From Eubacteriales bacterium (GTDB lineage: Bacteria; Bacillota; Clostridia; Oscillospirales; CAG-272), in NCBI GenBank assembly GCA_045632345.1, contig JAZQWM010000009.1, positions 1,730 through 65,729 on the forward strand: a stretch of DNA of 64,000 bases, written 5' to 3'. The translations under genes were made by a program, and so were the position numbers. Positions 10,934-61,506 of this stretch are shown one piece after another. Position 1 is the first letter of the stretch. Every line of letters starts with the position of its first letter. A model generated the notes under the pieces. The model was not told the origin of the DNA. It saw nothing but the letters and a program-made list of their open reading frames with translations, and did not search any database.

Positions 10934-10962
10934 ATTATACCATAAAGCATCTAAAATGTAAA
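10934..10962 (-). promoter_or_regulatory. Promoter of the methyltransferase gene
   Basis: Gene-sense TTTACA-17-TATAAT (TGg upstream). Confidence 0.5.
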
Positions 10963-10980
10963 TAGGACGGCTCAAAATGT

Positions 10981-11127: not shown

Positions 11128-11144
11128 GTTCTCAAAGAGATAAT
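11128..11144. repeat. Copy B (inverted) of the rpsI 3'-end word (GTTCTCAAAGAGATAAT)
   Basis: Positions 11128-11142 are the perfect reverse complement of 11200-11214 (15 bp); positions 11131-11144 reverse-complement-match copy A over 14 nt. Confidence 0.85.
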
Positions 11145-11176
11145 AAAAAAATGCCCCGAAAAAATCGGAGCATTTT
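11145..11176 (-). terminator. Terminator after rpsI
   Basis: Minus-strand aatgctccga-ttttt-tcggggcatt followed by TTTTTTT. Confidence 0.8.
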
Positions 11177-11198
11177 TTGTATCGACCAAAGGTCGAGA

Positions 11199-11600
11199 CT
11201 ATCTCTTTGAGAACTGTGGTGCGCGACGAGCAGCCTTGAGACCGTACTTCTTTCTTTCCTTCATACGTGGGTCACGTGTGAGGAGACCAGCAGCCTTAAG
11301 AGCGCCTCTTGTTGTTTCGTCAGCTGTGAGTAATGCTCTTGCAATACCGTGACGAATAGCACCTGCTTGACCTGAGATACCGCCGCCTACAACGTTAGCA
11401 ACAACATCGAATTTGCCCATGTTGTTTGTTACGTCGAATGGTTGGTTCATGATAAGCTTTAATGTTTCGAGACCGAAGTAGTCGTCAACGTCTCTTCCGT
11501 TGATAGTGATTGAACCAGTACCTGGATAAAGACGAACGCGAGCTACTGATTTCTTTCTTCTACCTGTTCCGTAGAAATATGGTTTAGCACTTGTATACAT
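11199..11600 (-). CDS. rpsI: 30S ribosomal protein S9
   Basis: 133 aa. [19 protein letters not shown]; C-terminal ...RRAPQFSKR. Confidence 0.97.
11200..11214. repeat. Copy C: the actual rpsI 3' end (…cag ttc tca aag aga tag)
   Basis: TATCTCTTTGAGAAC on the plus strand. Confidence 0.9.
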
Positions 11601-24904: not shown

Positions 24905-26662
24905 TTATGCTGCTTGCCCTTCAATCTGAGCAAAGGTTAGCGTTTGTGGTGCTTTATCGCAATAGTCCTTAGCATCAGCACTTCCTACGTAGTAAAATTC
25001 GCCGTCATATACGTATGTGCACATTACAAGATTTAATGCTTTAAGGTTAATCTTGTCGCCTTCTTCATATGTCTTAAAGCCTGAGAGCTTAAAGTCAACG
25101 CCTGCGTATGTACTATCAACGCCAGCAATTACAGTATTATTAAGATTAGATGTTACTACACCCTCGTTATATGATAAAGCTAACGCTTCGCCTTCGTCGA
25201 TAATTGTTGCAACAACGCCGTATGCAATTGTTTTGTTGTTCGCTTTATTGTATTCATCAATTGCTACTAGGTTAAATGCATATCCTACGCAAAGCTCTGT
25301 ATTATCCTTATTTGTTGAGTAGCCTACAAATTCAAATAATGCTGCGGCTTCAAGAACGTCATCCTTGGAGCAGCCGTCATTTGTACAATATACGTGCTTT
25401 TCGCCCACTAAAACGTATGAAGTATATGAAATTTCAGTTGTTAAAGCGTGAACTGGGTTTTCAAGAGGCTTTACGTCCTCACATACTGAGCATTTTTCTA
25501 CACATGGGTTAGCTACGTAGTTATGGACTCCCTTATAGAATGCATCGCACTCGCTGTAATTATAAACGATAATGTTTTTGCCAAGTGACTCGGCATAGCC
25601 CTCATAGTTGATTGTTGGGTCGTATGCCATAAGCTCTGCTTTTGCAATTGTATCATTTGCCGTTGCTGCAATAAATTTATCCTGGGATGCCTTAGCTTCA
25701 TTATAAGTACCAGTAAAGAAGAATGTTACGTTCTTGCCTTGACCGAAAATATTATAGAATCCCTTTGATCCGGTTAACACATTAGCAAAAGTGGATGGTA
25801 AGTATATGTACTTTATGCTTGTTGTATTTAAAAACGTTTCGTAGTCAGCATTTGGACTTGTAAACGTTGTGAAGGATGCTCCGAAGTTTACTGTTTCAAG
25901 CTTAGCGCAATCGCAAAATGCCATTTTGCCAACTGTTGTAACTGTGTTAGGCAAAATAACCTCTGTAAGCTCATCACAATTATAGAATGCTGTTTGACCA
26001 ATTGAAGTTACACCTTCAGGAATTGTAATTGACGTAATACCTGTACCGGTAAACATTTGAGTGTTAATAGAGGTTACCGCAACAGGCCAATCAATGTGAA
26101 TATTAAGCTTTGGGCAACCGTTAAAGCCCGCATTGTTAATTTGAGTCATATGAGAAATATCTGAGATATACTCAAGATTTTTGCAGTTTGAGAATGCATT
26201 TTGAGCATGGATTCTCTTCAAATGAGTACCCCAACGCGCTTCTACTATTGTTGGGAAGTTTTCAAACTTTGCGGTGTTATGGTTAATTTCCTCAACATAT
26301 GTAGGAATTTGAATTCTCACAAGGCATTCCTTAATGCTATTAAATGTAACGCCCTCAGCTGCCATTGCGGTTTTTAGAGTGTTATTAAATCCACTTGGAT
26401 TGTAATAGACACTCATATTTACTACATAGTATGCAGGGAACACATAATACTTGCTTCCGTCTGTTAATACAACTCTTGACTCTCTGTCTGTGGCGGTGTT
26501 GCTTTCGCCGTATGCCGCTATGTCAAGTGTTGAAACGAGGCTTGCATCACAATCAAGACCTGGGTCAGAATCGAGTGGAATGATAGCTGCGCTTGCAGAA
26601 ATTGCAAATACGCATATGAGCATAGCAACCATAAGTGCTATGATAAAAATTTTCTTTTTCAT
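24905..26662 (-). CDS. Secreted BspA-type leucine-rich-repeat protein with Cys module and shared C-terminal domain
   Basis: 585 aa. Signal peptide MKKKIFIIALMVAMLICVFAISASA. LRR_5-like repeats (AFSNCKNLEYI, TSITIPEGVTSIGQTAFYNCDELTEV). The C-terminus is homologous to the C-termini of the three genes at 50303, 53412 and 56442. Confidence 0.85.
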   Translation of the reverse strand: MKKKIFIIALMVAMLICVFAISASAAIIPLDSDPGLDCDASLVSTLDIAAYGESNTATDRESRVVLTDGSKYYVFPAYYVVNMSVYYNPSGFNNTLKTAMAAEGVTFNSIKECLVRIQIPTYVEEINHNTAKFENFPTIVEARWGTHLKRIHAQNAFSNCKNLEYISDISHMTQINNAGFNGCPKLNIHIDWPVAVTSINTQMFTGTGITSITIPEGVTSIGQTAFYNCDELTEVILPNTVTTVGKMAFCDCAKLETVNFGASFTTFTSPNADYETFLNTTSIKYIYLPSTFANVLTGSKGFYNIFGQGKNVTFFFTGTYNEAKASQDKFIAATANDTIAKAELMAYDPTINYEGYAESLGKNIIVYNYSECDAFYKGVHNYVANPCVEKCSVCEDVKPLENPVHALTTEISYTSYVLVGEKHVYCTNDGCSKDDVLEAAALFEFVGYSTNKDNTELCVGYAFNLVAIDEYNKANNKTIAYGVVATIIDEGEALALSYNEGVVTSNLNNTVIAGVDSTYAGVDFKLSGFKTYEEGDKINLKALNLVMCTYVYDGEFYYVGSADAKDYCDKAPQTLTFAQIEGQAA

Positions 26663-34265: not shown

Positions 34266-36281
34266 TTAGCCTTCGTATGCATAGAAGCTTACAGTTGCAT
34301 CTGCAGAAGCTGTAATTGTTACGTTAGTAACGCCCTCGTTCTCGTAGAGATCGAAGAATGTCTCAGCAGAATTTACTGTGTATGTCTTGCTTTCTTCGCC
34401 ACATTCAACTACGATTGTGTACGTAGTATCAGCAGATGCGCTTGAAAGCTTGATAATGCCCTTAGAAATATCAATGCTATCTTCTGTTACAGCAAGGCTG
34501 TATGCTACGTTAGCTGTAAGTGTTGTTGGTTCAGCTGGATTTCCGTAGCCCTTGAGTTCCCATGAGAGTGATGTGTTCTCGTCGATAACGAGGTCGCCAT
34601 CCATGATTGGCTCATCCATGTATGTTGTTATATCTCTGTATGTAACGTTGCATACTGAACATACAAGACGACCGTCGATGTACTCAGTAAATGGATGCTC
34701 TGTTCTTCTTGTGAAGTCCTTTTGGCACTTTTCTGTACAATCAGCATCGTTTGTACATGCGTAGTATGTATAACCCACAGACGTACATGTTGGATTTACA
34801 ACCTCTTGTGTTAAAATCCATTTATCTTCGCCGTTAGCGCCTACACCGTGCTTAAGAAGTGGTTTTTCTTCTTCAGTATATGTTTGTCTCCACTCTGTGT
34901 TACAATCGCCACATTCCCAAATTGTGTACGCATTCTTAATACATGTTGTAGGAACGAATTCGATTGGATTTCCATCTGCATCAACTGTCTTGTTAATTGT
35001 TGCCTTATGTGGAACTGTTTTAACGTTTCTTTCTTCTCTACAGCCTAAAGTACATGTGGTTTCTGCTGTTGTACTTGTCTCACAAATTGTACACACATAG
35101 AGGTCATAACCATATGCATAGCACTTTGCATCGATAACAGCTGTTGGAGCTTCTGCAAATACGTGGTCAAGCTTTTCGCCTGAGTGTCTCTTTTCTGTTG
35201 CTGTACAAGCAGCATCAGTTGTACACTTGAATTCTTCATATGCAGCCTCGTGACATGTAGCTGCCTTTGAGCTGATTAGCTCATCTGTTACATAGTGAAC
35301 GCCTGTTGCAGGAATCGCTTTAACATAGCTATTGCCAGTATCAGGGTCAATCTCAACGTCAAGAATTTCACCACATTCAGGTCTCATACACTTAGGTGTA
35401 ATTGTACCTTCTGTGATACACGTTGGCTCTACTCTTGTGATGTAGTCAACGTTTTCGTAATCAACTAAGTGTCCATTAGCCCCATCGTGTTCACCAGGAA
35501 GAACGTTCTTCTCTGTACAGCCTGCGTTTAAGCACTCATAATAGTCGTAACCAGGAAGTGTACACGTTGGTCGGTTCCATTGAACGTTCTCTTCGTCCCA
35601 ATCGTGACCGAGAGCGTCAGCAGTTTTAACTGTCCATGTTTCATCACATACTGTACATTTAAAGTTGTCTGTACCCTCTGTTAAGCATGTAGCTGGGGAA
35701 GAACCTGTTTGAACTTCTGTGTGTGGGAGTTTTGGAATTTCATCAACCTTACCACGAGCACCACATGTCTTACAAACTTGTGATACTGAGCCAGGAGCCT
35801 TACATGTAGCTTCTACTGTAACCTGTTCGTAATCATGCGCCCATCTAACTAATTCGCCTGTGCCATCTTCCGCTTCGCCGCAGATTGAACATACAGTCTC
35901 CTCAATACCGTTTTGTTGCTTACCGCAATCAACCGGTGTTGTCATCTTTTTCTCGCTGAAATCATGGAACTCAGCGCTTGACTTAATTTCGTCTTTTGGT
36001 TCACTTTCAGCTCCACATACTGAACATACTTGGTATGTGTAACCGTTATGACGGCATGTTGGCGCTTTAACGATTTCTTCGCCAAACGCGTGAGGAAGTG
36101 CCGCAACTTCTCTTTCCTCTGATTCGCCACATTCACAAGCAAAAATTGCTTTACCTGCAGCTTCACATGTTGCCTCTGTAATAACCTCTGTTTGCTTAAA
36201 GTCATGCTCATGTCCGCATGAAACTAAAACAAATGTAAGAGCTAGTACAGCAAGTACTAATAACAATACTCTTTTTTTCAT
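34266..36281 (-). CDS. Lipoprotein built from about 12 tandem Cys3-His modules plus a C-terminal beta-rich domain
   Basis: 671 aa. Lipobox LVSC|G. Repeated H-x(8-20)-[TK]C-x(8-12)-C-x2-C-x(8-20)-H modules. Has its own TTGACT-17-TATAAT promoter and terminator. Confidence 0.82.
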   Translation of the reverse strand: MKKRVLLLVLAVLALTFVLVSCGHEHDFKQTEVITEATCEAAGKAIFACECGESEEREVAALPHAFGEEIVKAPTCRHNGYTYQVCSVCGAESEPKDEIKSSAEFHDFSEKKMTTPVDCGKQQNGIEETVCSICGEAEDGTGELVRWAHDYEQVTVEATCKAPGSVSQVCKTCGARGKVDEIPKLPHTEVQTGSSPATCLTEGTDNFKCTVCDETWTVKTADALGHDWDEENVQWNRPTCTLPGYDYYECLNAGCTEKNVLPGEHDGANGHLVDYENVDYITRVEPTCITEGTITPKCMRPECGEILDVEIDPDTGNSYVKAIPATGVHYVTDELISSKAATCHEAAYEEFKCTTDAACTATEKRHSGEKLDHVFAEAPTAVIDAKCYAYGYDLYVCTICETSTTAETTCTLGCREERNVKTVPHKATINKTVDADGNPIEFVPTTCIKNAYTIWECGDCNTEWRQTYTEEEKPLLKHGVGANGEDKWILTQEVVNPTCTSVGYTYYACTNDADCTEKCQKDFTRRTEHPFTEYIDGRLVCSVCNVTYRDITTYMDEPIMDGDLVIDENTSLSWELKGYGNPAEPTTLTANVAYSLAVTEDSIDISKGIIKLSSASADTTYTIVVECGEESKTYTVNSAETFFDLYENEGVTNVTITASADATVSFYAYEG

Positions 36282-49284: not shown

Positions 49285-49950
49285 ATGTTTAAAACGGAAT
49301 TACATTGCCACTCAAACGATATTAGCGCATGCGCTAGAGTTGGCACTACGGAAATTATAGATACGTTTGTTAAGGCGGGATATTCTTCTCTCGTTTTAGC
49401 TAACCACCTAAACAGCTGGACAGTTGATAATATTTGTCCTAACGACTGGAACGGATTTGTTGACAAGTATTATGAGGCTTACGAGAAACTAAAAAAGGAC
49501 GCTGAGGGTAAATTAAATATTTTATTTGGTGCGGAGCTAAGATTTAACGGAAGCAACAATGACTATTTAGTTTTCGGTATGACTAAGGAATTTTTATATG
49601 AGCATCCGGATATTTTTGATTTACATGCTGAGAAGTTCCACAATCTTGCCAAAGAAAATAACATGCTCTTTATTCAAGCCCACCCATTTAGAAACTGGAT
49701 GATGGTAATTGACCCAAGAATGGTTGACGGCGTTGAGGTATTTAACGGACATTTCGGTCATGATTCAAGAAATGAAATTGCTGACATGTGGGCTGAAAAG
49801 TTTAATTTAATTAAGACATCAGGCACAGATTTCCACTATATTACATCCCCTGCAAACGGTGGTATTTTCACAGAGGAAGAAATTACCGATATGGCTCAGC
49901 TTGTTGAAATTTTAAAGAGCGGCAATTACACTTTAAATAGAGATTGCTAA
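49285..49950 (+). CDS. PHP-domain metal-dependent phosphoesterase
   Basis: 221 aa. N-terminal ELHCHS; later HPF and DFH metal-ligand-like positions. Confidence 0.7.
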   Translation: MFKTELHCHSNDISACARVGTTEIIDTFVKAGYSSLVLANHLNSWTVDNICPNDWNGFVDKYYEAYEKLKKDAEGKLNILFGAELRFNGSNNDYLVFGMTKEFLYEHPDIFDLHAEKFHNLAKENNMLFIQAHPFRNWMMVIDPRMVDGVEVFNGHFGHDSRNEIADMWAEKFNLIKTSGTDFHYITSPANGGIFTEEEITDMAQLVEILKSGNYTLNRDC

Positions 49951-49962
49951 CACGGAGAAAAC

Positions 49963-50271
49963 ATGATTACACTTTCACAGTATAATGCTAAGTTTGAGGA
50001 ATGCTACAAAAGAATGACAAGAGTTAGAAATCTTGCAAGCGCATTAAAGGACGGTCGCTTTTGGTTTGGCGCAACGTCATTCAGATTAGACGTTGACAAA
50101 TATATGAAAACCATTAAATCTGTAAATGATGCATATAACTCTTCCCCATCGTATAAAAGCAAGGATTTTACACAGTACGTAGAAAAGCTTGAATATGACG
50201 TTAAGGGATACGAGGAATATTTAATAAAGGTTAAGGAAATATCGGAAGCGACTAGAAAAGCAGGATATTAA
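49963..50271 (+). CDS. Hypothetical protein
   Basis: 102-aa ORF with RBS ggaga, probably helical. I recognise no family. Confidence 0.5.
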   Translation: MITLSQYNAKFEECYKRMTRVRNLASALKDGRFWFGATSFRLDVDKYMKTIKSVNDAYNSSPSYKSKDFTQYVEKLEYDVKGYEEYLIKVKEISEATRKAGY

Positions 50272-50302
50272 AAAGCAAGAGGATTTTCCTCTTGCTTTTT
50301 TG
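50270..50302 (-). terminator. Bidirectional terminator between the 102-aa ORF and giant paralog 1 (GCAAGAGG stem family)
   Basis: gcaagagg-atttt-cctcttgc flanked by A5 and T6. Confidence 0.8.
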
Positions 50303-53248
50303 TTATTCTGTTAGTGAGTTTATCGACACACCTGTTGGTAGGCTTGTTTGAGTAGCTTGTAGATATACTGTTGTATCTCCCTCAGTTAAGTAGATTGCCA
50401 TAACAACTGCTAGGTCTTTATTTGCATCGTTAAAGCCTGATACCTTCAAGTCAAAGCCACAGAATTTTCTGTCAAGCTCTGCTTTTTGAGTAAAGGATAC
50501 TATCTCGTTATCAAGAGGAGCTTTTCCGTTGAGCTTTTCTTCAAGCGATAATACAACGCCGTAGCTTACTGACGTTTGATTTAAAGCTTCATAAGCATCA
50601 ATGGCACTCTTATTTATCATAAAGCCCATTGTAATTTCAAGTCTGCCATCCTCTGGCATTGAGTAGCCTAGGAATAAGAATAGTGGATCGGCAGATGGTG
50701 CTTCCTCAATATATTCACTCTCGCACACGCTGCAAATACAGGTCTTTGTACCTGTAAATACAAATCCGTTTGCGTAAGAAACGCCGATTATTTCGCCTTC
50801 CTTATGACCTGTAATTGGTAATAGCTCGTAGGTGTACGTAATTTCCTCATAGTTATTGCTATTTGTTTTTTGGTTAGTAAACACCTTAACGGTTACCTCG
50901 CCCTCAACGAATTCTCCGCAAGGGCAGTCGCCCTTATAACCCTTAAAGCCCACCTCTGTACACGTATCAACAACCTTGGTTGCTTCAACTAGTGGATGCG
51001 GAATACCGTAAACAATTTTATATGCAGGATAGGTTACACCGTCAACGGTTTTAGATTCACAGTTACTGAATGCGCTTCCGTGTGTAATTGGAGCGTTTGT
51101 ATAAACGGTAATACCGTGGCTCTTATGGAATGCATCATTGCTAAGTGAAAGCTCTGTTGAGTGAATATAAATTTCCGCAGGTCCTGTTGTTGGGTCGTTA
51201 TCGTCTGCCCATTCGTACGAGTAGCAGAACGTCCAGCCTGCTGGGAATTTATTTACTTCCATTAAAACAGCCTTTTTGAGCTTATAGTTTCTATTAAACG
51301 GGTCGTTATCTAAGGAAGTTATTCCTCTGCCTACGTAGATATATTCTATATTGTTTTCCCAGAATGCACTACCTGTAAATTGAGGTCTTGAATAGTCAGG
51401 CAAAATAATTTCTTTAATGCCTGTACAGTTACCAAATGCTTTACCTGCAAGAACATAATCGCTGTTTGTTGAGAAGGTTACCCTCTCAATGCTTTTTACC
51501 ATGCTGAAAACTTCTGCTTCATAGGTAACGAACGCGCCTTCCTTATCGGAAAGAATATTTTTGATTGCGGTGTTTGCGCAGCCCTTTTTAAACGTTACGT
51601 TGGCAGCGCCAATATTGATGGTTTCAAGTGAGGATAATTGTGCAAAGCTATATACGTTGATTTTTGCACCGTCCTCAATATTTATTGTTCTTAATCTATA
51701 TGCACCAAATTCAAATCTAATTGCTGAAATACATGCAGGAACAGATACCTCGGCAACGTCATCTGATGAGAAATCTCCGTAATACTTAATGCCTGTGATT
51801 GTATATGAGTATGCGCCCTCTTCGCCTGATGCTTCAAGATGGAATATATCGGTAACGGGAACACTCATTTTCACTTCTCCGTCTGATGTGTAGAAAACAA
51901 CTTCAACGCTTATGAATGATGGGTCATAGGAATACTTTTTGTTTTCTATTTTTCCACAAGAGGAGCATTCATAGGTTTTAACTCCCGCTTCCGTTGGAGT
52001 GGCAGGAACGTCATTTATAACGCTGAAGCTATGAGGTGCTTTTCCCTCTGATTCAATATAGTATGAATGCTGACATAGTGAACACGTAAATTCTGTTCTG
52101 CCTGATGATATACAGGTTGCTGCATATTCAGACTTTTCATAATTATGGATACAGTCAATAGGTACTACTGTAACAAACACCGTATCACCGACCTTTTGGG
52201 ATACTGTCGTGTGTGTATCAAGTAATAGCTCCTTAAGAGCTTCCGTTTCTGCAAAATTCAAAACAAATGAGCCACCTGTTACGTTGAAGTAGTTAAGCTG
52301 TTCATTATTATATGAATTTGTATTAGCTGAGAAAATCGCTGCATTTTCCTCGATAAAGATAAACGAGCCGCCGCTGATATTAACGTTTATAATACCTACG
52401 TAGGTTGTTCCGCCTGTAAGTGAAGGTCCTGTTAAAACGATTTCGGCTCCCTCATAAACGTTAACGTTTGGTTGTCTTTCCAAGTCTCTATCCATGTGTA
52501 GCAGTCTATACGCGGTAACCTTACCGTAAATATCCATTGTTGGATATAGCTGTGTACCAATGGTGTTTGTATCGCAGCCAAGAATAGCGGTTGATGCTTC
52601 AACTACGATATCAGCGCCGATAAGTAAATAGTTATTATTTCCCGCATAAGTATGAGAGTGCATTCTAAAAAGGTGCGCGCCTAAGCCTGACGTATCGCTT
52701 GGCTCAAATATAATTTCGCCCTCTCCGTAAAATCTTCTGCCTGCTCTTTCCTGCTCAAAGCCACGGTTTGTGCCTTTGATTGTCAAGGAATGTCCATTCA
52801 TAAAGAAATTGGTAATGCCTTGGTTTTTTGTTGAAATGGTGCCGCTTTCTGATACTAAGTCATTCATAAGCTTTACTGCTGTACCGTTTGCAACGGCAGT
52901 TTTCATGGCTTCGATTGTATCAACCTCAAGTGCCTTAAACTGATAAAGAGGTGTATTCTTATCAAAGCTTACAACGTCTCCTGCGCTCCACGCTTTACCG
53001 TCAGGTGTTGCCCATACTAAGCAGTAGCCTGTATCTACTGTTTTTGTAGGGAGTGTAATTTTTTCTCCCTTAGCAACAACTTGCGTTCCCTCTGTTCCAA
53101 CAGTCTTATCCAAGGAAGTTGAGTTTATTCCCGTCATATAGGAAATTGTTATTTGCTCCTGCTCTGCAAAGGTATTAAATGCCAAAAGCATAGCTGAGCA
53201 AATTGTAACTGTTATTATCGCTAATATAAGCAATATTCTTTTTTTCAT
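50303..53248 (-). CDS. Giant secreted protein, paralog 1: Flg_new-like repeat, Cys3-His modules, BspA-type LRRs, shared C-terminal domain
   Basis: The ORF runs to 53272. I moved the start to ATG 53248 (taaggagaaaagctATG), giving 981 aa. Signal peptide MKKRILLILAIITVTICSAMLLAFNTFA. Confidence 0.88.
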   Translation of the reverse strand: MKKRILLILAIITVTICSAMLLAFNTFAEQEQITISYMTGINSTSLDKTVGTEGTQVVAKGEKITLPTKTVDTGYCLVWATPDGKAWSAGDVVSFDKNTPLYQFKALEVDTIEAMKTAVANGTAVKLMNDLVSESGTISTKNQGITNFFMNGHSLTIKGTNRGFEQERAGRRFYGEGEIIFEPSDTSGLGAHLFRMHSHTYAGNNNYLLIGADIVVEASTAILGCDTNTIGTQLYPTMDIYGKVTAYRLLHMDRDLERQPNVNVYEGAEIVLTGPSLTGGTTYVGIINVNISGGSFIFIEENAAIFSANTNSYNNEQLNYFNVTGGSFVLNFAETEALKELLLDTHTTVSQKVGDTVFVTVVPIDCIHNYEKSEYAATCISSGRTEFTCSLCQHSYYIESEGKAPHSFSVINDVPATPTEAGVKTYECSSCGKIENKKYSYDPSFISVEVVFYTSDGEVKMSVPVTDIFHLEASGEEGAYSYTITGIKYYGDFSSDDVAEVSVPACISAIRFEFGAYRLRTINIEDGAKINVYSFAQLSSLETINIGAANVTFKKGCANTAIKNILSDKEGAFVTYEAEVFSMVKSIERVTFSTNSDYVLAGKAFGNCTGIKEIILPDYSRPQFTGSAFWENNIEYIYVGRGITSLDNDPFNRNYKLKKAVLMEVNKFPAGWTFCYSYEWADDNDPTTGPAEIYIHSTELSLSNDAFHKSHGITVYTNAPITHGSAFSNCESKTVDGVTYPAYKIVYGIPHPLVEATKVVDTCTEVGFKGYKGDCPCGEFVEGEVTVKVFTNQKTNSNNYEEITYTYELLPITGHKEGEIIGVSYANGFVFTGTKTCICSVCESEYIEEAPSADPLFLFLGYSMPEDGRLEITMGFMINKSAIDAYEALNQTSVSYGVVLSLEEKLNGKAPLDNEIVSFTQKAELDRKFCGFDLKVSGFNDANKDLAVVMAIYLTEGDTTVYLQATQTSLPTGVSINSLTE

Positions 53249-53282
53249 AGCTTTTCTCCTTAATATATACAATTACAATAAA

Positions 53283-53311
53283 ATTTTATCATATTTAGTT
53301 ATAATTGTCAA
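53283..53311 (-). promoter_or_regulatory. Promoter of giant paralog 1
   Basis: Gene-sense TTGACA-17-TAAAAT with TGa extended -10. Confidence 0.6.
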
Positions 53312-53373
53312 TAAATCGAGCGATATATATGCGTTTTTGGCAACAATGCACAAAACAATATTTTTATTTTTAT

Positions 53374-53406
53374 GCAAAAAAGCAAGAGGCTTAGCCTCTT
53401 GCTTTT
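53374..53406 (-). terminator. Terminator after giant paralog 2 (GCAAGAGG stem family)
   Basis: agcaagaggc-tta-gcctcttgct flanked by A6 and T4. Confidence 0.8.
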
Positions 53407-53411
53407 CTATT

Positions 53412-56288
53412 TTAGGATAATGAGTTTATTGATACCCCTGTTGGTAGGTTGGTTTGAGTATCTTGCAGATATACCGTTGTATCTCCATCGGTTACGTAGA
53501 TTGCCATAACGACTGCTAAATCCTTAATATTATCGTTAAAGCCTGAAATCTTTAAGTCAAAGCCACAGAGTTTTCTGTCAAGCTCTGTCTTTTGAGTATA
53601 TGATGCCACCTCGCTATCGAGAGGAGCTTTACCGTTAAGATTGTTTTCAAGGGCTAATACAACGCCGTAATTGAAGGTATTTCCAGATAATTCTTCGTAG
53701 GTATCAATTACTTTATTGTTAATCATAAAGCCCATTGTGATTTCAAGTCTGCCATCCTCAGGCATTGAGTAGCCTAAGAATACAAATAATGGGGCAGCAC
53801 TTGGCACAAGCTCTGTGTATTCCTCGTTACAAACGCGACAAATACAATCCTTTAAGCCCTCAAGCATGTAGCCATTGAGATAGTCAACGTAAACAATATC
53901 ACCCTCAAAGTGTCCTGTTGCAGGAATTACGGTTGAATAATATACTTTATCTACAAAGTTTTCGCTATTAGTAAGAGCTGCTGTAAAGGTTCTTGCAGTT
54001 ACTTCTCCGTCTAATTGAACACCGCAAGGACAATCAGTCTTATATCCGTTTACGCCGTTTTCTGTACATGTTGGCTCCTCGTATGCTTCAACGAGCTTAT
54101 GAGGAATACCGTACACAATGGTATATGCAGGATAGTACACGTCGTTTTTAGTTACTTCGGTACAGCCATTGAATGCACTTCCGTTTGTAATAGGCGCATT
54201 TGTGTAAATGGTAACGCCATGACATTGATAGAACGTATTGTTTGGAAGTGAGAGTGAATCTGAGTGAATGTAAACCTCAACAGGCTTTTCTGCAGTATTT
54301 TCAACACAGAAGGTATATTCTTGGATTATTTTAACAACGTCCATAAGAACGATTTTCTCAACGTTTTGGCAATAGTCAAACGCTTTACCATCAAGATATT
54401 TTATTCCTCTACCTAAATAGATATATTTGAGTGAAGTGCACTTATAGAACGGAGGATCCATTTTAAACGTTACATCTGAATAGTCAGGGGCTATAAACTC
54501 TGTTATACCTACTCCTCTAAAGCTATTGCTTCCAAATACGTACTTACTGTAAGAGCTAAGCTTTAATTCTGTAATAGATGATCTACCGTCAAATACCTGT
54601 GTGTCAAAGGTTATGTCTGCTCCCTGCACCTCTGATTTAATAGAGAATATTACTTTATTAGTACAGCCCTTAACAAATTTTACAGTTGATGCGCCAATTT
54701 CAATATGAGTTAACGCTTTACAATTTGCAAAGCTGCTAACAGTTACATTTGCTCCGTCGATTATTACGAGCTTTTGAAGCGTTGTGTTTTCTGATGCAAA
54801 ATTTATATCAGCTATGCCCACAGGAACGTTGATAGCTACTATATTTGCTACTGTATAGCCGCCAAAGTCCTTTAAGCCAACTAGCTTATATTGATTATTG
54901 CCCATGCTTTCTAAGTTGAATACGTCGCTTACCTTTACAGATACTTCTTCTTCAATTTCGTCTGTTTTTACGGTAACCTTTACTTCCTTTTCAGCTACGT
55001 CGTCATAATAGATTTCGCTTTTTGTATCAAAGCAAACCTTACACTCATAGCTCTTTACGCCCGCTGACGTATAGGTAGGTTGCTTATCATCTACTAATTT
55101 CCAGTCATGGTCTGCATAATCCCCATATACAACGGTATAAGTGTGATTGCATTTTGAACAGGTATAAGTTTTATCTGCAAGCGCAATACAAGTTGCATTA
55201 ATCTCACTGGTAACTGCGTAAGTATGAGCGCATTCGCTCTCTTCTACAACGATATAGTAGGTTGCTCCGCCAAGCTCAAGTGGTTGAATTTTATATCCTA
55301 AAGCGATATATTCTTCAACTTTTTCTCCAAAAGCCACGTTAAACGTGCCGCCGGATATTGATATAATTTGACGATCGCCATATGATACGGTATCGTTATT
55401 ATTCCAATAGTCTGTTCCGCTTGCATTTTCAGCTAATTTAATATATCCGTCGGTTACTGTTATGCGAACCTTACCGTTTCCTGCGGCATCATAAGTTCCG
55501 ATCGTAAATAGCGCGTCTCCTGTTACGGTTAAATCTTTAGCGTTGATTTTAATGTCAAGCTCATGGTTAAGAGTAGATATATAAGCGATTTTTGCGCAAG
55601 AGGCTTTACCAAAAATATGAATTGGAATTACGCTATTATTGCCGTTAGTGTAATGTAATAACGTTCCTTTTGTTGATATAGTAACATCCTTACCAACGAT
55701 AAGTCTTTGGTTTCCGTCGCCGAAGCCGTGTGAAGAAGCATTAAAGAAATTGCCTGTTCCTGTGTGGATAACGGAACCTTCGCCTACAAGTATAACACCT
55801 GCTCTTTGCTCTTCAAACAAATTTTTTGCTGATGAGGTAATTGAGTAGCCGTTTAAATCAAAGATTACTCTACCGCCCCAAGGTGGCGCGATTCTAGACT
55901 CTAAAACGATATCCTCTTGAAGACGTACAAAGATTTGGTCCCATTGGCTGTTACCCTGTGTAGCACCTTGGTACTTAATGCTTTCGTTTGTTCCGTCATA
56001 TCCGTACGCCTCATACAAATCAAGGTCGCTTGTTAACGTAACTACTTCGCCAACATCGTAAACATCACCCTCTACATTATACCAGCCAAAAAGTGTTTTT
56101 CCACTTTGGTTAGTATAGCCTGTGCTTTTTATGGTAATTTGTCCGTTTGCATCAGTTGTGGCCGTTTCCTTTACAGAACCCCATATATCACGGTAGGTTA
56201 CCAAGTATTCTTCAGCGCATACTGATATTGCGAAAATAAAAGCAAAAACGAATATTAGTGAAATAAATATAAGTATTTTCTTTTTCAT
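53412..56288 (-). CDS. Giant secreted protein, paralog 2 (same architecture)
   Basis: 958 aa. Signal peptide MKKKILIFISLIFVFAFIFAISVCA. The C-terminal ~126 aa are close to paralog 1 (PLF(L/V)FLGYSMPEDGRLEITMGFMIN). Confidence 0.88.
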   Translation of the reverse strand: MKKKILIFISLIFVFAFIFAISVCAEEYLVTYRDIWGSVKETATTDANGQITIKSTGYTNQSGKTLFGWYNVEGDVYDVGEVVTLTSDLDLYEAYGYDGTNESIKYQGATQGNSQWDQIFVRLQEDIVLESRIAPPWGGRVIFDLNGYSITSSAKNLFEEQRAGVILVGEGSVIHTGTGNFFNASSHGFGDGNQRLIVGKDVTISTKGTLLHYTNGNNSVIPIHIFGKASCAKIAYISTLNHELDIKINAKDLTVTGDALFTIGTYDAAGNGKVRITVTDGYIKLAENASGTDYWNNNDTVSYGDRQIISISGGTFNVAFGEKVEEYIALGYKIQPLELGGATYYIVVEESECAHTYAVTSEINATCIALADKTYTCSKCNHTYTVVYGDYADHDWKLVDDKQPTYTSAGVKSYECKVCFDTKSEIYYDDVAEKEVKVTVKTDEIEEEVSVKVSDVFNLESMGNNQYKLVGLKDFGGYTVANIVAINVPVGIADINFASENTTLQKLVIIDGANVTVSSFANCKALTHIEIGASTVKFVKGCTNKVIFSIKSEVQGADITFDTQVFDGRSSITELKLSSYSKYVFGSNSFRGVGITEFIAPDYSDVTFKMDPPFYKCTSLKYIYLGRGIKYLDGKAFDYCQNVEKIVLMDVVKIIQEYTFCVENTAEKPVEVYIHSDSLSLPNNTFYQCHGVTIYTNAPITNGSAFNGCTEVTKNDVYYPAYTIVYGIPHKLVEAYEEPTCTENGVNGYKTDCPCGVQLDGEVTARTFTAALTNSENFVDKVYYSTVIPATGHFEGDIVYVDYLNGYMLEGLKDCICRVCNEEYTELVPSAAPLFVFLGYSMPEDGRLEITMGFMINNKVIDTYEELSGNTFNYGVVLALENNLNGKAPLDSEVASYTQKTELDRKLCGFDLKISGFNDNIKDLAVVMAIYVTDGDTTVYLQDTQTNLPTGVSINSLS

Positions 56289-56323
56289 TTTCAGTTCTCC
56301 TTATAATATATTGTTACGATTTA

Positions 56324-56352
56324 AGTTTACCATATTTTGTTCTATTTGTCAA
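56324..56352 (-). promoter_or_regulatory. Promoter of giant paralog 2
   Basis: Gene-sense TTGACA-17-TAAACT with TGg extended -10. Confidence 0.6.
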
Positions 56353-56394
56353 TAATCTCATAATTTTCAAATTGTTTTTATTCAATTTGCACAA

Positions 56395-56427
56395 ACAAAA
56401 AAGCAAGAGGTTGCCCTCTTGCTTTTT
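56395..56427 (-). terminator. Terminator after giant paralog 3 (GCAAGAGG stem family)
   Basis: gcaagagg-ttgc-cctcttgc flanked by A-runs and T-runs. Confidence 0.8.
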
Positions 56428-56441
56428 CATTAAGATTTGAA

Positions 56442-59400
56442 TTATTCTACCGGTGTTTCTTCTTCCTTTGGTTCTTCCGCAGGTGGATTTACAGGAGCTT
56501 CACTTCCAAGATATTTGTTAATTGAAATTGAAGCCGGTAAATCTGTTTGAGTATCTTGTAGATATACCAAGCTATCGCCCTCAGCTACGTATGCAGCCAT
56601 AACAAGCTCTAAATCATAAAGCTCAGTTGTAAAGCCTGAAACAACAAAGTCAAATGATAAAAACTCCTTAGGTACAGTTGTCTTAACCACAGCCACATTC
56701 TCAAGCGTTTCATCAAATGGAGCCTTGCCATCAAGAGCGTTAGCTAATGCAAAAGCAACGCCGTAGCTTATCGAAGTTTCTGCCACTGATTCATATTCTG
56801 CGATTGCTTCCTTATTTACAATATAGCCAATGCTCATTTGGAGTCTTCCGTCCTCAGGCATTGAGTAGCCATTAAAGATGAATAATGCTGCTGCATCCTT
56901 TTCTACTGTATGCTCAACGTTACATCTTGTACAGATGTATGATACTGCGCCCTTTTCAAGATAGCTTACGTATGCGATGTTTGTCTTTTCGCCAAGCTTA
57001 TCGTGTCCTAAAGGAGCGATTTCTGTTACAGTGAATGTAACTGCCTCATCAACTGCTGTATCAGCTGTGATATTGTGCTTCTTTTCATACTTATTGATTA
57101 CTGTTGTTTCAGTAAAGTACGTTTCAGAGCCACATGGACACTTTGTGATATCTACAATCCAAGTATTTAAGCCGATATTTACACAGTCAGGGTCAACAAC
57201 GTGGTTTGTAAGTGGATGAGCAAGACCGAGATATACTGTCCAAGCCTTAAAGCCGTTTGTATCGCCACAGTTTGCAAATACTTCGCCGCTTGTGCCGATA
57301 TTGTCTGTTATTGTATATACGAAGATACCGTCGCACTCCTTAAATAAGCCCTTATTGAATACAAAGTCAAGTGAGTGGTTATAAACATAGAAAGGTGTTG
57401 CGTAGTTGCTTGAGCCAGCGTATTCAAATTCATATTCGCTTGTGTGTGTAACACCTTCCATGATATAAAGTGTTTCAAGCGCTTTAAGGTTTCTAAATGG
57501 ATAGTTTTTAATCTCAATATTCTTACCGATATAGAGAGTTACAGCCTTATCACATTCCTTAAATGCATCAACGCCTGTGAATTCTACATTTATGTTATCT
57601 TCAAATGTGATTGAAGCGAAGTCAGCATAACGGAATGCTTCTCTACCAATCTTAAATGTGGATGTATTTGAGAATACGACGTCGTTTGTTGGTGATGTGC
57701 TTCTGAATGCATAGTCGCCGATTGTGTAGGTTGAGTTTTCACCAAATGCAAGATATGTTACTGTGCTTCTGCCGTCAAATGCCTGTGAGCCAAATGTTGC
57801 GGTTACATTATTTGCGGTAAAGTCAAGCGTATTAATTGCTGAACAATCACGGAAGCAGTAGTATCCAAAATCATATGTAGAATTTGCACCGAATTTTACC
57901 TCGGTAAGCTTTGCGTTCTTAAAGCACTCTTGACCGAATGTATATGTGGAGTTTTCGCCGCTTACATCAAGTGATGTAATTGCGCTCTTTCCGTTAAATA
58001 CATGGTTAGCAACTATAACTGTTAAGTTATTTGCACTTGCATCAATCCTTTGAAGATTATTTGTTGAGCTGTAGCAGTTGCTATTAAAGTTATAGGTTGA
58101 GCCTTCTCCAAGTGTTAATTCAGTAAAAATAGAGTTTCTGAACGCTTCGCTATTGAATGTATATGTGCCGTTTTTACCGTTGATTAAAAGCGTCTGAAGT
58201 GTGTTCTTACCGAATCCGTACGCATTTACTGTTACATTTAAGCTGTCTGCGCTTGCATCAATCTTAGCTATTGGAGTTGAACCATTAAAGCAGTTATTGA
58301 ATACGTAGGTTGAGCCTTTACCGAGTGTTACCTCTGCAATCTTTGTATCAACAAACGCGCTACCGTTAAAGGTATATGTGGAGTTTTCGCCGTTAATCTT
58401 TAAGGTATCAAACGCTGTATGTCCCTTAAACGCCTCTCCTTCAATCAATAATGTAATTCCGCTTGCGCTTGCATCAAGAGCTTTGAAGGATGATTTATTT
58501 GGAGTACCGTTTATGCAGTATCTCTTGAATGTGTATGATGAATTCGGTGCTAAAACAAACTCTGTAAATAATGCATCATTAAATGTGCCTTCGCTAATTA
58601 CATATGTTGAATTTTCACCAAATTTAAGTGTTGTGATAGCACCTGTTTGCTTGTTGTCTAACCATGAGTTAAAGGCACTATTGTTCATAGTTACAGTCAT
58701 ATTGCCTGCACTCATATCAATTTCTTCAAGTATTGTGTTTGTAAATGCTTGTTGACCTATTGTGTAGCTGCTGTTTGGCGCTAACACAACCTTTGGAATT
58801 GGGCAATATGTAAAGCATCTTGATCCTATGCTATACGTTGCATTTTCGCCGAATTTTACGCTTGTAAGTGTTTTACAGTTTTCAAACATTCTATACATTA
58901 AATCAAAGCTTACTCCATCAGGGAAAACAAGCTCTGTCATATCGTTTCCGTAGAAGTTTTGTTCGCCTGAGAATGTATATGTGTTTGTTGCAGGGAATTT
59001 TAATTCTGTAATTGTACAGTTATAGAATGCATATGACTTAATATCGTAAGTTGAATTTTCGCCAAAAATAAGATTTGTTAACGCGCCTCTTCCATTAAAT
59101 GCACTTGGCATAAAGGTTACCGTATGATTGCCCGCGCTTAAGTCGATTGTAGCAATCTTTTGCATGTCGCGTCTTTCGTTGTTTGGACTATAGTAGCTAC
59201 AGCTTGCGCAGAATACTACATTAGCATTTTTGCCTACTGTAATCTTTTCAACCTTTCTTAGGTTACCGATATTTTGAAACTCAACCTTTGCGCCTTCTGC
59301 GATATTAAGCTCAGCTACGCCGTATTCTACATTATTATATTTTTCGTAGTTGTGAGTTGTGATGTAGATATACATAATTCCCTTAGGAATTGTAATACCG

Positions 59401-61349
59401 TAAATGTTTCTAATCTTATAGTCGCCAAATGCTTTAACTGCGGAAAGAGTATAAACATAGTCTCCATCTGAGCCTGATGTAGCAAAGTCGAAAACCTCGC
59501 TTGCCTTAACAGTGATTTCCTCAAATGTGCCATCATCAAGTCTAATCTTAACTAAAATGTCAAGGTTAGATGGATCAAGGTTGTATGGAGATGTTTTTGA
59601 CATACCACACATTGAGCACGCGTATGATTTTGAACCAAGGGATGTAAGTGTTGCTTCGATGTGCTCACCTAAAACAAGGTTGTGGTTAAGCTTTTCGCCC
59701 CATGTGAAGTATACATTATGACCGCACTCTGTACAGTTATAGTCTGCATATGCAGCGTGGCTACATGTAGCATCTGTTGGTTCGCCACTGAATGTGTGCT
59801 CACATGCTGCAGGAACAACTACTTGGAATGTTGTGTTGTCTGCTACAAGATTTTGAAGCTTATAGTCAACTGATGTAGTAGCGTTCTTAAATAAGAAGAA
59901 GTTAGCACCTTGAACCATTACGAAATCATCTGTTAATTTATCGTATGTTGTAGTTGTTGTGCCATCGCCGTTATCTACTACTGTTGCTTCGTAAATAAGT
60001 AATGTTTCAATAGCGTTGCCATCAGCGTTCTTTGTTGATGTGTATCTATACTCTGTTTTGTTGCCTGCGAAGTCAGTTACAACGAGCTTTGCAGGATTTG
60101 TTCCATCGTACTTGCTGAATACGAGCTTGTATGCAGCCTTGTTGTAGTATGGAACATAGTATGTTGAGTCGTTATTGTTTGTAACAAGACCATTACCGCC
60201 ATCGTGAATCATATTAACATAATCTTCTGTTAAAAATGATGAAATAGCAGGAACCTTATTGTCAGGAAGAACGAATGAACCGCCTGAAATCTTGATTGAG
60301 TCTCTATTTGTATCTGTAACCTCATATGGTGAGTATGTTGCAGATCCTACAACAAATTCCTCAAGGTATTCATCTGACCAGAATGAAAGGTTTTCAGCCT
60401 CTGCAGGTAAGTAGAATGTACCACCGTAAATTCTTATTTGAATAGCGTGGCTGTTGAAGTAGTATTGCGTATTTGATGATTTGTAATAGCACTGATATAA
60501 TGCAGGACCATTAATTTTAACTACTGCGTTTTCATAAATTTCAAAAACTTGAGTTCTGGTTGGGCCTGTGCTTGTTACCATAAGACCGTAAACATCAATC
60601 TTACCGTAAATTCTGATCCAAGGATAGTGTGGGTTAGTGCCATCCCAGTCCTGTGTGAGCCAGAAGTCAGGAGCGTTAATTGTAACATCGCGACCAACAA
60701 CGGATTTGTTCTTTGTACCATTATAGCCGTGACCTTGGCTATTGATTACATAGTATGAGCCAACCTTACCATCTGTGCTTGTTACATTTAATGTACCTTC
60801 ACCTAAGATTTGCTTACCCGAACGCTGATTACCGATAATATCACCGTTTCTTGTCATATCGATAGTGTGGCCATTTAAGATAAGTGCGGACATATCCTGG
60901 TCCCTAACATCAATACCAACGGTGGTTATGATATCAGCCATTAAGATAGCGGCAATGCTTTCGTTTGTCATAGCATAGTTAACTTCTGTAATTGTGTAAC
61001 ATTCCTTAGCTACGCATCTGAAAAGCTTTGTGTCCTTATCGAATGATACGGTCTCTCCCGCTTTATATGTGCGACCGTCTTCTGTGTAGAATACAAGCTG
61101 GAAGCCATCTTGTCCTACATATGAGTTGTCGGCAGTTAATGGAAGCGTAAATTCTTCTCCTGCCTTTACTGTTTGTTTACCGCCTGCATATGCAACTGTA
61201 TCAAGAGTGGTTGTAGTACTTGTTGTATCTTGAGACTTTACATATGAAACGGTAATGTCCTTTGCTTCTGCTTCGTTTGCAATTGCTACAACGCCAAGAA
61301 CTAAAATAGCAACTAAAACGAAAATCAAAGCAATTAAACTCTTTTTCAT
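56442..61349 (-). CDS. Giant secreted protein, paralog 3, with an expanded LRR array
   Basis: The ORF runs to 61394. I moved the start to ATG 61349 (aaaggagaaaccaaaATG), giving 1635 aa. Signal peptide MKKSLIALIFVLVAILVLGVVAIANEAEA. Confidence 0.88.
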   Translation of the reverse strand: MKKSLIALIFVLVAILVLGVVAIANEAEAKDITVSYVKSQDTTSTTTTLDTVAYAGGKQTVKAGEEFTLPLTADNSYVGQDGFQLVFYTEDGRTYKAGETVSFDKDTKLFRCVAKECYTITEVNYAMTNESIAAILMADIITTVGIDVRDQDMSALILNGHTIDMTRNGDIIGNQRSGKQILGEGTLNVTSTDGKVGSYYVINSQGHGYNGTKNKSVVGRDVTINAPDFWLTQDWDGTNPHYPWIRIYGKIDVYGLMVTSTGPTRTQVFEIYENAVVKINGPALYQCYYKSSNTQYYFNSHAIQIRIYGGTFYLPAEAENLSFWSDEYLEEFVVGSATYSPYEVTDTNRDSIKISGGSFVLPDNKVPAISSFLTEDYVNMIHDGGNGLVTNNNDSTYYVPYYNKAAYKLVFSKYDGTNPAKLVVTDFAGNKTEYRYTSTKNADGNAIETLLIYEATVVDNGDGTTTTTYDKLTDDFVMVQGANFFLFKNATTSVDYKLQNLVADNTTFQVVVPAACEHTFSGEPTDATCSHAAYADYNCTECGHNVYFTWGEKLNHNLVLGEHIEATLTSLGSKSYACSMCGMSKTSPYNLDPSNLDILVKIRLDDGTFEEITVKASEVFDFATSGSDGDYVYTLSAVKAFGDYKIRNIYGITIPKGIMYIYITTHNYEKYNNVEYGVAELNIAEGAKVEFQNIGNLRKVEKITVGKNANVVFCASCSYYSPNNERRDMQKIATIDLSAGNHTVTFMPSAFNGRGALTNLIFGENSTYDIKSYAFYNCTITELKFPATNTYTFSGEQNFYGNDMTELVFPDGVSFDLMYRMFENCKTLTSVKFGENATYSIGSRCFTYCPIPKVVLAPNSSYTIGQQAFTNTILEEIDMSAGNMTVTMNNSAFNSWLDNKQTGAITTLKFGENSTYVISEGTFNDALFTEFVLAPNSSYTFKRYCINGTPNKSSFKALDASASGITLLIEGEAFKGHTAFDTLKINGENSTYTFNGSAFVDTKIAEVTLGKGSTYVFNNCFNGSTPIAKIDASADSLNVTVNAYGFGKNTLQTLLINGKNGTYTFNSEAFRNSIFTELTLGEGSTYNFNSNCYSSTNNLQRIDASANNLTVIVANHVFNGKSAITSLDVSGENSTYTFGQECFKNAKLTEVKFGANSTYDFGYYCFRDCSAINTLDFTANNVTATFGSQAFDGRSTVTYLAFGENSTYTIGDYAFRSTSPTNDVVFSNTSTFKIGREAFRYADFASITFEDNINVEFTGVDAFKECDKAVTLYIGKNIEIKNYPFRNLKALETLYIMEGVTHTSEYEFEYAGSSNYATPFYVYNHSLDFVFNKGLFKECDGIFVYTITDNIGTSGEVFANCGDTNGFKAWTVYLGLAHPLTNHVVDPDCVNIGLNTWIVDITKCPCGSETYFTETTVINKYEKKHNITADTAVDEAVTFTVTEIAPLGHDKLGEKTNIAYVSYLEKGAVSYICTRCNVEHTVEKDAAALFIFNGYSMPEDGRLQMSIGYIVNKEAIAEYESVAETSISYGVAFALANALDGKAPFDETLENVAVVKTTVPKEFLSFDFVVSGFTTELYDLELVMAAYVAEGDSLVYLQDTQTDLPASISINKYLGSEAPVNPPAEEPKEEETPVE
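57465..59162 (-). repeat. Coding super-repeat: about 72-aa units, each of three ~24-aa BspA-type LRRs, in giant paralog 3
   Basis: G(E/K)N(S/A/G)TY anchors at ORF aa 778, 849, 926, 1002, 1073, 1146 and 1218. ID(A/L/M)SA anchors at aa 750, 892, 973, 1045, 1117 and 1190. Confidence 0.85.
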
Positions 61350-61384
61350 TTTGGTTTCTCCTTTAAGATATATAATATATATTA

Positions 61385-61413
61385 ATGATATCACATATTG
61401 TGTAATATGTCAA
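61385..61413 (-). promoter_or_regulatory. Promoter of giant paralog 3
   Basis: Gene-sense TTGACA-17-TATCAT with TGa extended -10. Confidence 0.6.
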
Positions 61414-61476
61414 CCAACGAGTGATTAAAAGAGGTTTTTTCGTAATATTGCACAAAACTAAGATGGTTTATTTATA

Positions 61477-61506
61477 CAAAAAAGCAAGAGCTTTGTTGCT
61501 CTTGCC
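61477..61506 (-). terminator. Terminator after valS (GCAAGAGC stem, same family)
   Basis: gcaagagc-tttgtt-gctcttgc preceded by A6. Confidence 0.75.

Follow-up and report, generated by a model that had tools for sequence, protein, structure and literature searches.

A valS-linked array of secreted leucine-rich repeat proteins, probably recombining and co-regulated, in gut Clostridia

The stretch of DNA analysed here (64,000 nucleotides of contig JAZQWM010000009.1 from an Eubacteriales bacterium; hereafter the window) carries, next to valS, three consecutive minus-strand genes for large secreted proteins, which we term A (50303-53248, 981 aa), B (53412-56288, 958 aa) and C (56442-61349, 1635 aa). 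On balance, and with moderate confidence, we view this array as a recombining and probably co-regulated family of secreted ligand-binding proteins that are displayed at or near the cell surface through a shared C-terminal domain (CTD). The three genes are intact open reading frames (ORFs), each read from an ATG that follows AAGGAGA; the longer TTG or GTG starts given by the ORF tool (989 and 1650 aa) are alternatives upstream of these ATGs. In BLASTP comparisons A and B are 40% identical across their full length (E = 0), and either of them aligns with C in three collinear blocks at 25-33% identity (E 1e-9 to 1e-56). This similarity is far above chance: A, B and C are true paralogs with a single module order, as an earlier note on this DNA had described them. 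A further ORF of 125 aa on the plus strand (58378-58755) lies antisense to gene C within its repeat-coding part and is most likely spurious.

Transcription signals and variation at the valS locus

The earlier note proposed that each gene forms its own promoter-gene-terminator unit, and a near-consensus promoter, an AAGGAGA and a hairpin are indeed found at all three. The promoters, all on the minus strand, combine TTGACA, a spacer of 17 and a TG extension with TATCAT in C (61385..61413; 11 of 12 consensus positions), TAAACT in B (56324..56352) and TAAAAT in A (53283..53311). These three outrank every other promoter-like site in the region; they lie 27-36 nt 5' of the ribosome-binding sites and keep their positions in related loci. 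Directly 3' of each array stop codon lies one of the region's three strongest hairpins, with stems of 13-14 bp and the form AAAAGCAAGAGG-loop-CCTCTTGCTTTTT, an exact hairpin that occurs three times in the window and not once in shuffled sequence. These terminators, which like that of valS carry no strand assignment, are located after A (50270..50300, the 3' boundary of the array), B (53378..53406) and C (56401..56424, AAGCAAGAGG-loop-CCTCTTGCTT). The valS terminator (61484..61505, GCAAGAGC-loop-GCTCTTGC) is a close variant of them and forms the 5' boundary of the array. All the cassette-bounding hairpins and that of valS share the pattern GCAAGAG(G/C)-loop-(C/G)CTCTTGC followed by a run of T, which is also kept in related loci. 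The limits originally noted for the array, 50270 and 61413, coincide exactly with the last terminator and the first -35 hexamer.

Upstream of each promoter lies a copy of TTTGTGCAATATTACGAAAAA, an imperfect palindrome (TTTGT-N-ACAAA) and candidate operator, on the minus strand at 61436..61456 for C, 56375..56395 for B and 53334..53354 for A. This box has three matches in the window against 0.13 expected, every one at an array promoter. In the form TTTGTGCA-N6-ACAAAAA it stands at a fixed distance of about 41 bp upstream of the -35 hexamer in 15 family promoters from eight genomes, and it is a perfect palindrome in one locus (L006); gene D, a relative of the array elsewhere in the window, has no such box. 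We estimate that its centre lies near -70 relative to the predicted transcription start, and it could be bound by a dimeric activator. The whole intergenic unit, consisting in order of the terminator hairpin, GCATAAA, the palindrome, TTGACA-17-TGnTAnnnT, a short leader and AAGGAGAA, was found at the same number of family genes (15 in eight genomes), and it may both serve as a homologous junction at which cassettes are exchanged and contain a candidate operator common to these genes. The copies of the terminator hairpin look like junctions at which whole genes were gained or lost. Integron-type gene cassettes were considered and rejected, since no integrase is present at six syntenic loci and the hairpins are canonical terminators with a GC stem and a T-run.

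Full-length relatives of the array proteins are few: among 5.8 billion proteins searched we obtained 20 of the A/B type and 79 of the C type. The matching genomes are metagenome-assembled genomes (MAGs) that come from the guts of deer, goats and other animals and bear the labels Clostridia, Eubacteriales or Candidatus Coproplasma. The full-length family occurs only in such MAGs of uncultured animal-gut Clostridia, where its members are annotated just as 'leucine-rich repeat protein' or 'hypothetical'. One of them (P0190) is 100% identical to the gene C product. The loci compared below all come from MAGs or metagenome contigs.

In related genomes the site between valS and a convergent 102-aa ORF plus PHP gene carries from one to four array genes in varying order, which answers the question of copy-number variation that the earlier note had raised. 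There is a single B-like gene in L001; there are two genes in L003 (A-like and B-like) and in L005 (C and B, without A), where the B counterpart (P0001) is 96% identical. The window has three (C, B and A), as does L017 (a C-like gene of 1622 aa followed by untyped genes of 958 and 978 aa), and both L016 and L002 have four (A-like, C and two B-like). Family members occur at other sites in more distant genomes. The 102-aa ORF (49963-50271, plus strand), for which there is no family match, and the PHP-domain gene (49285-49950, plus strand) both converge on the array, and in all six related loci they keep strict synteny with its 3' boundary, however many array genes are present. An alignment to L005 may record one such change in gene number: its positions 10569-11477, the 3' part of the B counterpart, align to the window both at 53367-54275 (B) and at 50263-51171 (A), which fits recombination in the conserved CTD-coding region with one cassette removed or added.

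The genes themselves are mosaics. Within gene C the head cassette (aa 121-515; 59805..60989, minus strand) is hypervariable. Identity between C and its L005 counterpart is 49% for the head as against 93% for the middle; in 26-aa sliding windows it is 22-62% over aa 126-515 and 92-100% in the leucine-rich repeats (LRRs), and blastn against the same locus gave no alignment for window 59754-60760. The counterpart in L002, a locus that is more distant in its housekeeping DNA (approximately 82% identity versus 86-92%), is 91% identical in the head and 85% in the middle. These comparisons argue that head cassettes are exchanged between genomes. The variation takes the form of replacement of about 1 kb rather than point changes, so a diversity-generating retroelement does not fit; no reverse-transcriptase-like gene was present among the window genes examined, although not every ORF was scanned. 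At the other end of the protein, three relatives of the C type (P0196-P0198) are 65-82% identical to C from the N-terminus through the LRR and 21-43% identical in the C-terminal unit (68-75% in the LRR against 21-26% in the CTD): their C-terminal unit has been replaced.

Exchange also seems to have taken place within the array. A and B are approximately 20-35% identical in their first 500 residues and 70-78% in the CTD, and where their residues agree, identity in the third codon position climbs from 0.2-0.6 in most upstream windows to about 0.8 in the CTD. The CTD of A (50306..50683, minus strand), apparently homogenised with that of B, is 76% identical to the B domain as against 47% to the CTD of L009, which is closest to A in head and middle. 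This points to homogenisation of the 3' ends of A and B by gene conversion. Recent tandem duplication as the origin of the array was not supported and was rejected, as the heads of A, B and C are just 19-25% identical; together with the differing gene numbers and orders in related genomes, this indicates that A, B and C are old paralog types. Horizontal acquisition of the array was likewise rejected, since its GC and GC3 contents are similar to those of adjacent housekeeping genes.

Modules of the array proteins and distribution of the CTD

Each protein consists of a signal peptide, a small N-terminal beta domain, a head, a first Cys/His region, an LRR domain, a second Cys/His region and the CTD. 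These modules occupy residues 1-28, 29-105, 106-365, 366-440, 441-749, 750-855 and 856-981 in A; 1-25, 26-97, 98-352, 353-427, 428-727 (a cap plus LRR_5), 728-833 and 834-958 in B; and 1-29, 30-120, 121-515, 516-590, 591-1375 (a long LRR_5 domain), 1376-1488 and 1489-1615 in C, which ends in a Pro/Glu-rich tail (1616-1635). The signal peptides named in the earlier note are readable in all three sequences as MKK, a hydrophobic core and an AxA-like cleavage site, typical of Sec substrates.

We scanned the whole proteins and each segment against Pfam and NCBIfam, the segments at permissive E-values. The LRR domain is a genuine BspA-type LRR_5 member, as had been noted: LRR_5 (PF13306) scores 40.5 bits in A, 48.8 in B, 142.2 in C (E 1e-41, seven stretches) and 93.6 in D (E 1e-26), all above the cut-off of 27.7, and LRR_8 also exceeds its Pfam cut-off in C. 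NCBIfam gave nothing above threshold for A, B, C or D, and for the head, the Cys/His modules and the CTD there was no match above threshold in Pfam, NCBIfam or PDB sequence profiles. Searches of PDB profiles with the family, the head, the C-terminal unit and protein E (see below) returned only BspA-type LRR structures (4fs7, E 5e-18; 4gt6, 2e-11; 4h09, 5e-6; also TpLRR 6mlx and PcpA 4cp6). The LRR is therefore the only segment assigned to a characterised family by the profile searches that the earlier note had proposed, and literature searches on BspA/LRR proteins in Clostridia, on Coproplasma and on PF13306 yielded nothing on this architecture. The view that it lacks a functional description holds, and we found neither characterised families for all segments nor a previous description of the locus.

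The N-terminal beta domain had been likened to the Flg_new repeat. This resemblance fails the Pfam threshold: residues 26-97 of B score 17.5 bits against Flg_new (PF09479; cut-off 27, E 0.0046, profile positions 1-63 of 65), and E falls below 1 in just one of ten family heads. Residues 30-125 of C are 56-82% identical in distant relatives (P0190-P0242) whose heads are 37-50% identical, which suggests that this small domain is under stronger constraint than the head that follows it. The head motif described as LNG(H/Y)(S/T)I is present in the form LNG(H/Y)(S/T)(I/L), and a signature QR(S/A)G...GEG...H(G/S/T)Y is conserved. The region had also been called rich in Gly, Asn and Thr; there is a mild enrichment (27-29%), set against 23-26% in the whole proteins. 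The G8 beta-helix domain matches the head below threshold (18.5 bits, cut-off 22.9).

An alignment of 19 family sequences contains 57 invariant columns, and bears out the Cys3-His modules and second Cys region that had been recognised on either side of the LRR. Eight invariant or nearly invariant Cys/His residues precede the LRR (C353, H355, C367, C377, C380, H394, C416 and C419) and seven follow it (H730, C741, C753, C755, H793, C817 and C820), a count that corresponds arithmetically to two Cys3His sets per side. Zinc-ribbon models match these modules only below threshold, and each is predicted to form a three-stranded sheet. They may bind zinc and serve as rigid connectors.

For full-length B the AlphaFold2 model is confident (mean predicted local distance difference test score, pLDDT, 87.5) and nearly all beta. 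The head is modelled as a run of short strands, with a period of approximately 25-30 residues in the sequence; this is compatible with a beta-solenoid and does not prove one, and beta-helix structures appear in the whole-B fold searches at probabilities below 0.4. The C-terminal unit of B (aa 728-958; 53415..54107, minus strand), which comprises Cys/His region 2 and the CTD, was modelled separately (pLDDT 89.4) as two beta-sandwich domains. The Foldseek comparison suggested by the earlier note was run on both models. The whole B model matched only BspA-type LRR proteins in the PDB with high probability (0.97-1.0) and only LRR proteins among the BFVD viral structures, and the C-terminal unit gave weak, generic beta-sandwich matches. 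Insulin-receptor, tailspike and pectate-lyase matches were set aside because of low probability and root-mean-square deviations above 25 A.

The shared C-terminal domain reported earlier aligns in A, B, C and D and is approximately 125 aa long. With a profile built from these four copies, an exhaustive search of 1.84 billion representative proteins returned 1032 clusters (at 50% protein identity) at E <= 1e-3, 374 of them at E <= 1e-10. The same profile had given only 15 fragments in a word-indexed homolog search, and the distribution described here is that of the exhaustive search. The term lineage-specific, which the earlier note used of the whole system, is thus not borne out for the CTD. 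The domain ends within 10 residues of the protein C-terminus in 107 of the 119 cases with a complete domain end. Its carriers mostly have 450-700 aa, the size of gene D being the commonest length; a signal-peptide-like N-terminus is present in 91 of 101, a lipobox in five and LPXTG in none (0/101). LRR_5 was detected in 54 of 76 carriers scanned. The CTD also stands at the end of a metallophosphatase (P0091, 816 aa) and on an LRR protein with SdrD_B/SpaA-like domains (P0166). Every CTD-bearing protein with a name comes from a Clostridia MAG and is called 'leucine-rich repeat protein' or 'hypothetical protein'. The CTD behaves as a portable, conserved extracellular module of secreted proteins. 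Such a distribution would be expected of a shared attachment, docking or sorting module, without telling which.

No established anchor was recognised, in agreement with the earlier note. SLH, CWB2, choline-binding, LysM, SH3b, GW and WxL models gave no Pfam or NCBIfam match in A-D at E <= 0.01, and wall-binding modules gave none for the CTD at E <= 10 and none in the 76 CTD-bearing proteins scanned. A and B end in ...LPTGVSINSL(TE/S) and C in ...LPASISINKYLG plus an acidic tail; none of the three contains LPXTG, and the longest hydrophobic run in their last 45 residues is seven or fewer. Models for the CTD of the type IX secretion system (T9SS; Por_Secre_tail/TIGR04183) had no match in Pfam or NCBIfam, and the host belongs to a Clostridia lineage.

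Two further genes of the window had been counted as relatives. Gene D (24905..26662, minus strand) encodes a 585-aa protein with a signal peptide, LRR_5, a short Cys region and the CTD, and it lacks a head. Gene E (34266-36281, minus strand) encodes a predicted lipoprotein of 671 aa with an LVSC lipobox, nearly the whole of which is taken up by tandem H...C...CxxC (Cys3His-patterned) modules, each about 40 aa long. At least seven of these fit the strict pattern and the 40 Cys residues suggest about 13; protein E has no Pfam, NCBIfam or PDB match and may form an extracellular zinc-module stalk. The relationship stands for D as regards LRR, short Cys region and CTD; E shares with A, B and C only the Cys modules, those that flank the LRR. 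Genes A to E together cover 14.5 kb, or 22.7% of the window, close to the 23% estimated earlier, and the remainder is housekeeping (obg, trmD, nusG, L1, ftsK, pnp, a P-type ATPase, shikimate-pathway genes, ftsH, tilS and valS). A 716-aa membrane protein encoded at 1845-3995 (minus strand) has a Wzy_C/O-antigen-ligase-like domain (E 2e-8); it could function in surface glycopolymer synthesis or protein glycosylation, and hence be relevant to the target of a wall-binding domain.

Proposed role, alternatives and known systems

We propose that A, B and C are independently transcribed, probably co-regulated, Sec-secreted multidomain proteins of uncultured gut Clostridia (Eubacteriales) with a presumably Gram-positive-type envelope. 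Each would be a string of beta-rich modules: the small N-terminal domain, a variable and probably beta-solenoid head, two Cys3His-patterned modules presumably stabilised by zinc, the BspA-type LRR as the likely ligand-binding surface, two further Cys/His modules predicted to fold as a beta-sandwich, and the conserved beta-sandwich CTD of about 125 aa. At or near the cell surface the proteins may act as adhesins or receptor-binding proteins that engage ligands with a specificity set by the head and the length of the LRR, and the CTD, common to all three, would tether them non-covalently to the envelope or to a partner. The cassette of box, promoter, gene and terminator would be the unit of locus evolution. 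Homologous recombination at the conserved intergenic junctions and 3' ends would add, delete and reorder whole genes, swap heads and C-terminal units and homogenise CTDs, and the displayed protein set would vary from strain to strain. We infer co-regulation from the upstream palindrome, and likewise infer the surface location, the ligand binding and the anchoring role of the CTD; head variation may reflect diversifying pressure on specificity or on phage or host recognition.

Several observations weigh against this interpretation. Promoter-like sites are not significantly enriched across the region (46 against 37.1 +/- 6.9 in shuffles), the terminator-like count is also not above shuffles, and both scans report consensus matches only; because these region-wide counts do not exceed shuffles, the argument for separate transcription units rests on position and conservation. 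The similarity of the A and B CTDs could reflect shared constraint, though the synonymous-site signal argues for conversion. In Foldseek comparisons with the PDB the C-terminal unit resembles only generic beta-sandwiches (template modelling scores 0.27-0.39), among them DUF3823 4fxt (E 3e-4), CBM21 7qfa and FnIII tandems, and since the CTD has no specific structural match, the case for an anchoring role draws only on where the domain stands and how it is distributed. A few proteins contain it internally, among them P0120 (1252 aa), where a CTD-like segment at 519-627 is followed by phosphodiesterase and LamG domains; this protein and the metallophosphatase mean that the CTD is neither tied to LRR proteins nor strictly terminal. 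The sole basis for suggesting a surface or adhesin role is likeness to BspA-type LRR proteins, and the head may be enzymatic, its fold having been searched within the whole-B model only. Of the lineage-specific surface or adhesin system put forward in the earlier note, the restriction of the full-length family to gut Clostridia MAGs is upheld, and the surface or adhesin part is suggested by the BspA analogy alone.

If the proteins were instead released as soluble binders or enzymes, the beta-solenoid-like head would be a polysaccharide lyase or hydrolase, targeting would fall to the LRR, and the CTD would act as a carbohydrate-binding module directed at the substrate and not at the cell. The lack of a known anchor, the weak fold matches of the CTD to starch-binding CBM21 and SusE/F-like DUF3823, its presence on secreted phosphoesterases and the sub-threshold G8 match would all be in keeping with this. 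We consider it unlikely: the invariant columns in the solenoid part of the head are mostly Gly, together with N121, R137, H162 and P197, and include no Asp or Glu, unlike a glycoside hydrolase; no lyase or hydrolase family was matched when the head profile was compared with Pfam and PDB profiles; and the head is the least conserved part of the protein, which suits a specificity or antigenic module better than a catalytic one. The C-terminal unit might alternatively be a sorting or export signal, perhaps cleaved, of a dedicated secretion-attachment pathway equivalent to the T9SS, with its machinery encoded elsewhere. A beta-sandwich at the extreme C-terminus of diverse, mostly signal-peptide-bearing cargo, and its status as the most conserved part between paralogs, are features of such a signal. 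This is nevertheless distinctly improbable, as no T9SS CTD model was matched, the T9SS is known only from Bacteroidota and their relatives and requires an outer membrane, the CTD is internal in some proteins, and the otherwise housekeeping window contains no candidate machinery.

The CTD could also serve in assembly, by oligomerisation or by docking onto a scaffold or S-layer protein in the manner of cohesin and dockerin, so that the proteins form a surface complex. A distant LRR_5 relative (P0020) has a dockerin (PF00404) instead, which suggests that docking modules are interchangeable on such proteins, and the portability and C-terminal position of the CTD on many different secreted proteins agree with a docking function; yet neither sequence nor fold matches the CTD to cohesin or dockerin, and no scaffold gene lies near the array in any locus examined, so that we give this explanation little credence. 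It is highly unlikely that the differences in gene number and order and the mosaics are artefacts of metagenome assembly or binning. The comparison loci are indeed all of metagenomic origin, and conserved intergenic cassettes and CTD-coding ends are repeats prone to misassembly, but over most of their length the paralogs share just approximately 40-50% nucleotide identity and are hence too divergent to collapse, two separate samples (L002 and L016) yielded one and the same four-gene arrangement, and in each variant the ORFs are intact and the flanking synteny, with valS on one side and the 102-aa ORF and PHP gene on the other, is preserved.

A bolder form of our surface-display proposal, which we regard as tentative and somewhat doubtful, is that the CTD and the preceding Cys/His module constitute an undescribed, widespread envelope-attachment module of uncultured gut Clostridia, a counterpart of SLH, CWB2 and the T9SS CTD that would define a new class of displayed proteins. 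The valS-linked array would then be a contingency locus, in which the exchange of head cassettes between species serves to alter binding specificity or to evade phage or host immunity. Little is known of how the many uncultured gut Clostridia display surface proteins, and many of their large proteins are labelled only 'leucine-rich repeat protein'; a CTD carried by about a thousand secreted-protein families and absent from Pfam, NCBIfam and the PDB is a candidate new attachment module. Genomes with exchanged genes, heads or C-terminal units mark the parts under diversifying pressure, and the conserved upstream palindrome could lead to the regulator of the array genes. If the anchoring role is true, the annotation of thousands of 'hypothetical' and 'LRR' proteins in gut metagenomes would be improved; if it is false, the array would add another lineage-specific gene family to those of the BspA-like kind. 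Multigene families of BspA-type LRR surface proteins are already familiar, families of LRR adhesins are common in gut bacteria, and the most useful new elements here are the undescribed CTD family and the natural recombination series at the locus.

BspA-type proteins are adhesins that often belong to multigene families. Like BspA of Tannerella forsythia, LrrA of Treponema denticola and TpLRR of Treponema pallidum (6mlx), the array proteins combine LRR_5 with an N-terminal signal peptide, and the family profile matches TpLRR. The hosts of these three proteins have an outer membrane, and BspA bears Big_2 domains and a T9SS C-terminal domain, both of which the array proteins lack; in turn, the array head, Cys/His modules and CTD have no counterpart there. 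The best profile and fold matches are to proteins from the same habitat, namely BACOVA_04585 (4fs7), a 'leucine rich cell surface protein' of Faecalibacterium prausnitzii (4gt6) and 4h09; they cover the LRR only (approximately 300 of 958 residues), contain no flanking modules and have no published function. In Bacteroidota many unrelated secreted cargos, the LRR adhesin BspA among them, end in the T9SS CTD, which is a beta-sandwich. The array CTD is alike in being a terminal beta-sandwich on varied cargo, and differs in sequence, in phylum and envelope type and in its occasional internal position.

Listeria internalins are a clustered family of secreted LRR proteins with strain-variable content, recombination between paralogs and shared LPXTG or GW anchors; the array proteins are similar to them in overall design, belong to another LRR subtype and lack the inter-repeat Ig domain, LPXTG and GW. 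Among Gram-positive LRR adhesins, Streptococcus pneumoniae PcpA and streptococcal HupY/LrrG are weak matches, and gene D is not a member of the HupY family given its 29.8 bits against a cut-off of 1250. The array proteins have no choline-binding repeats, but PcpA (4cp6), which joins an LRR to C-terminal choline-binding repeats that attach it non-covalently, follows the same design logic as that proposed here for the array.

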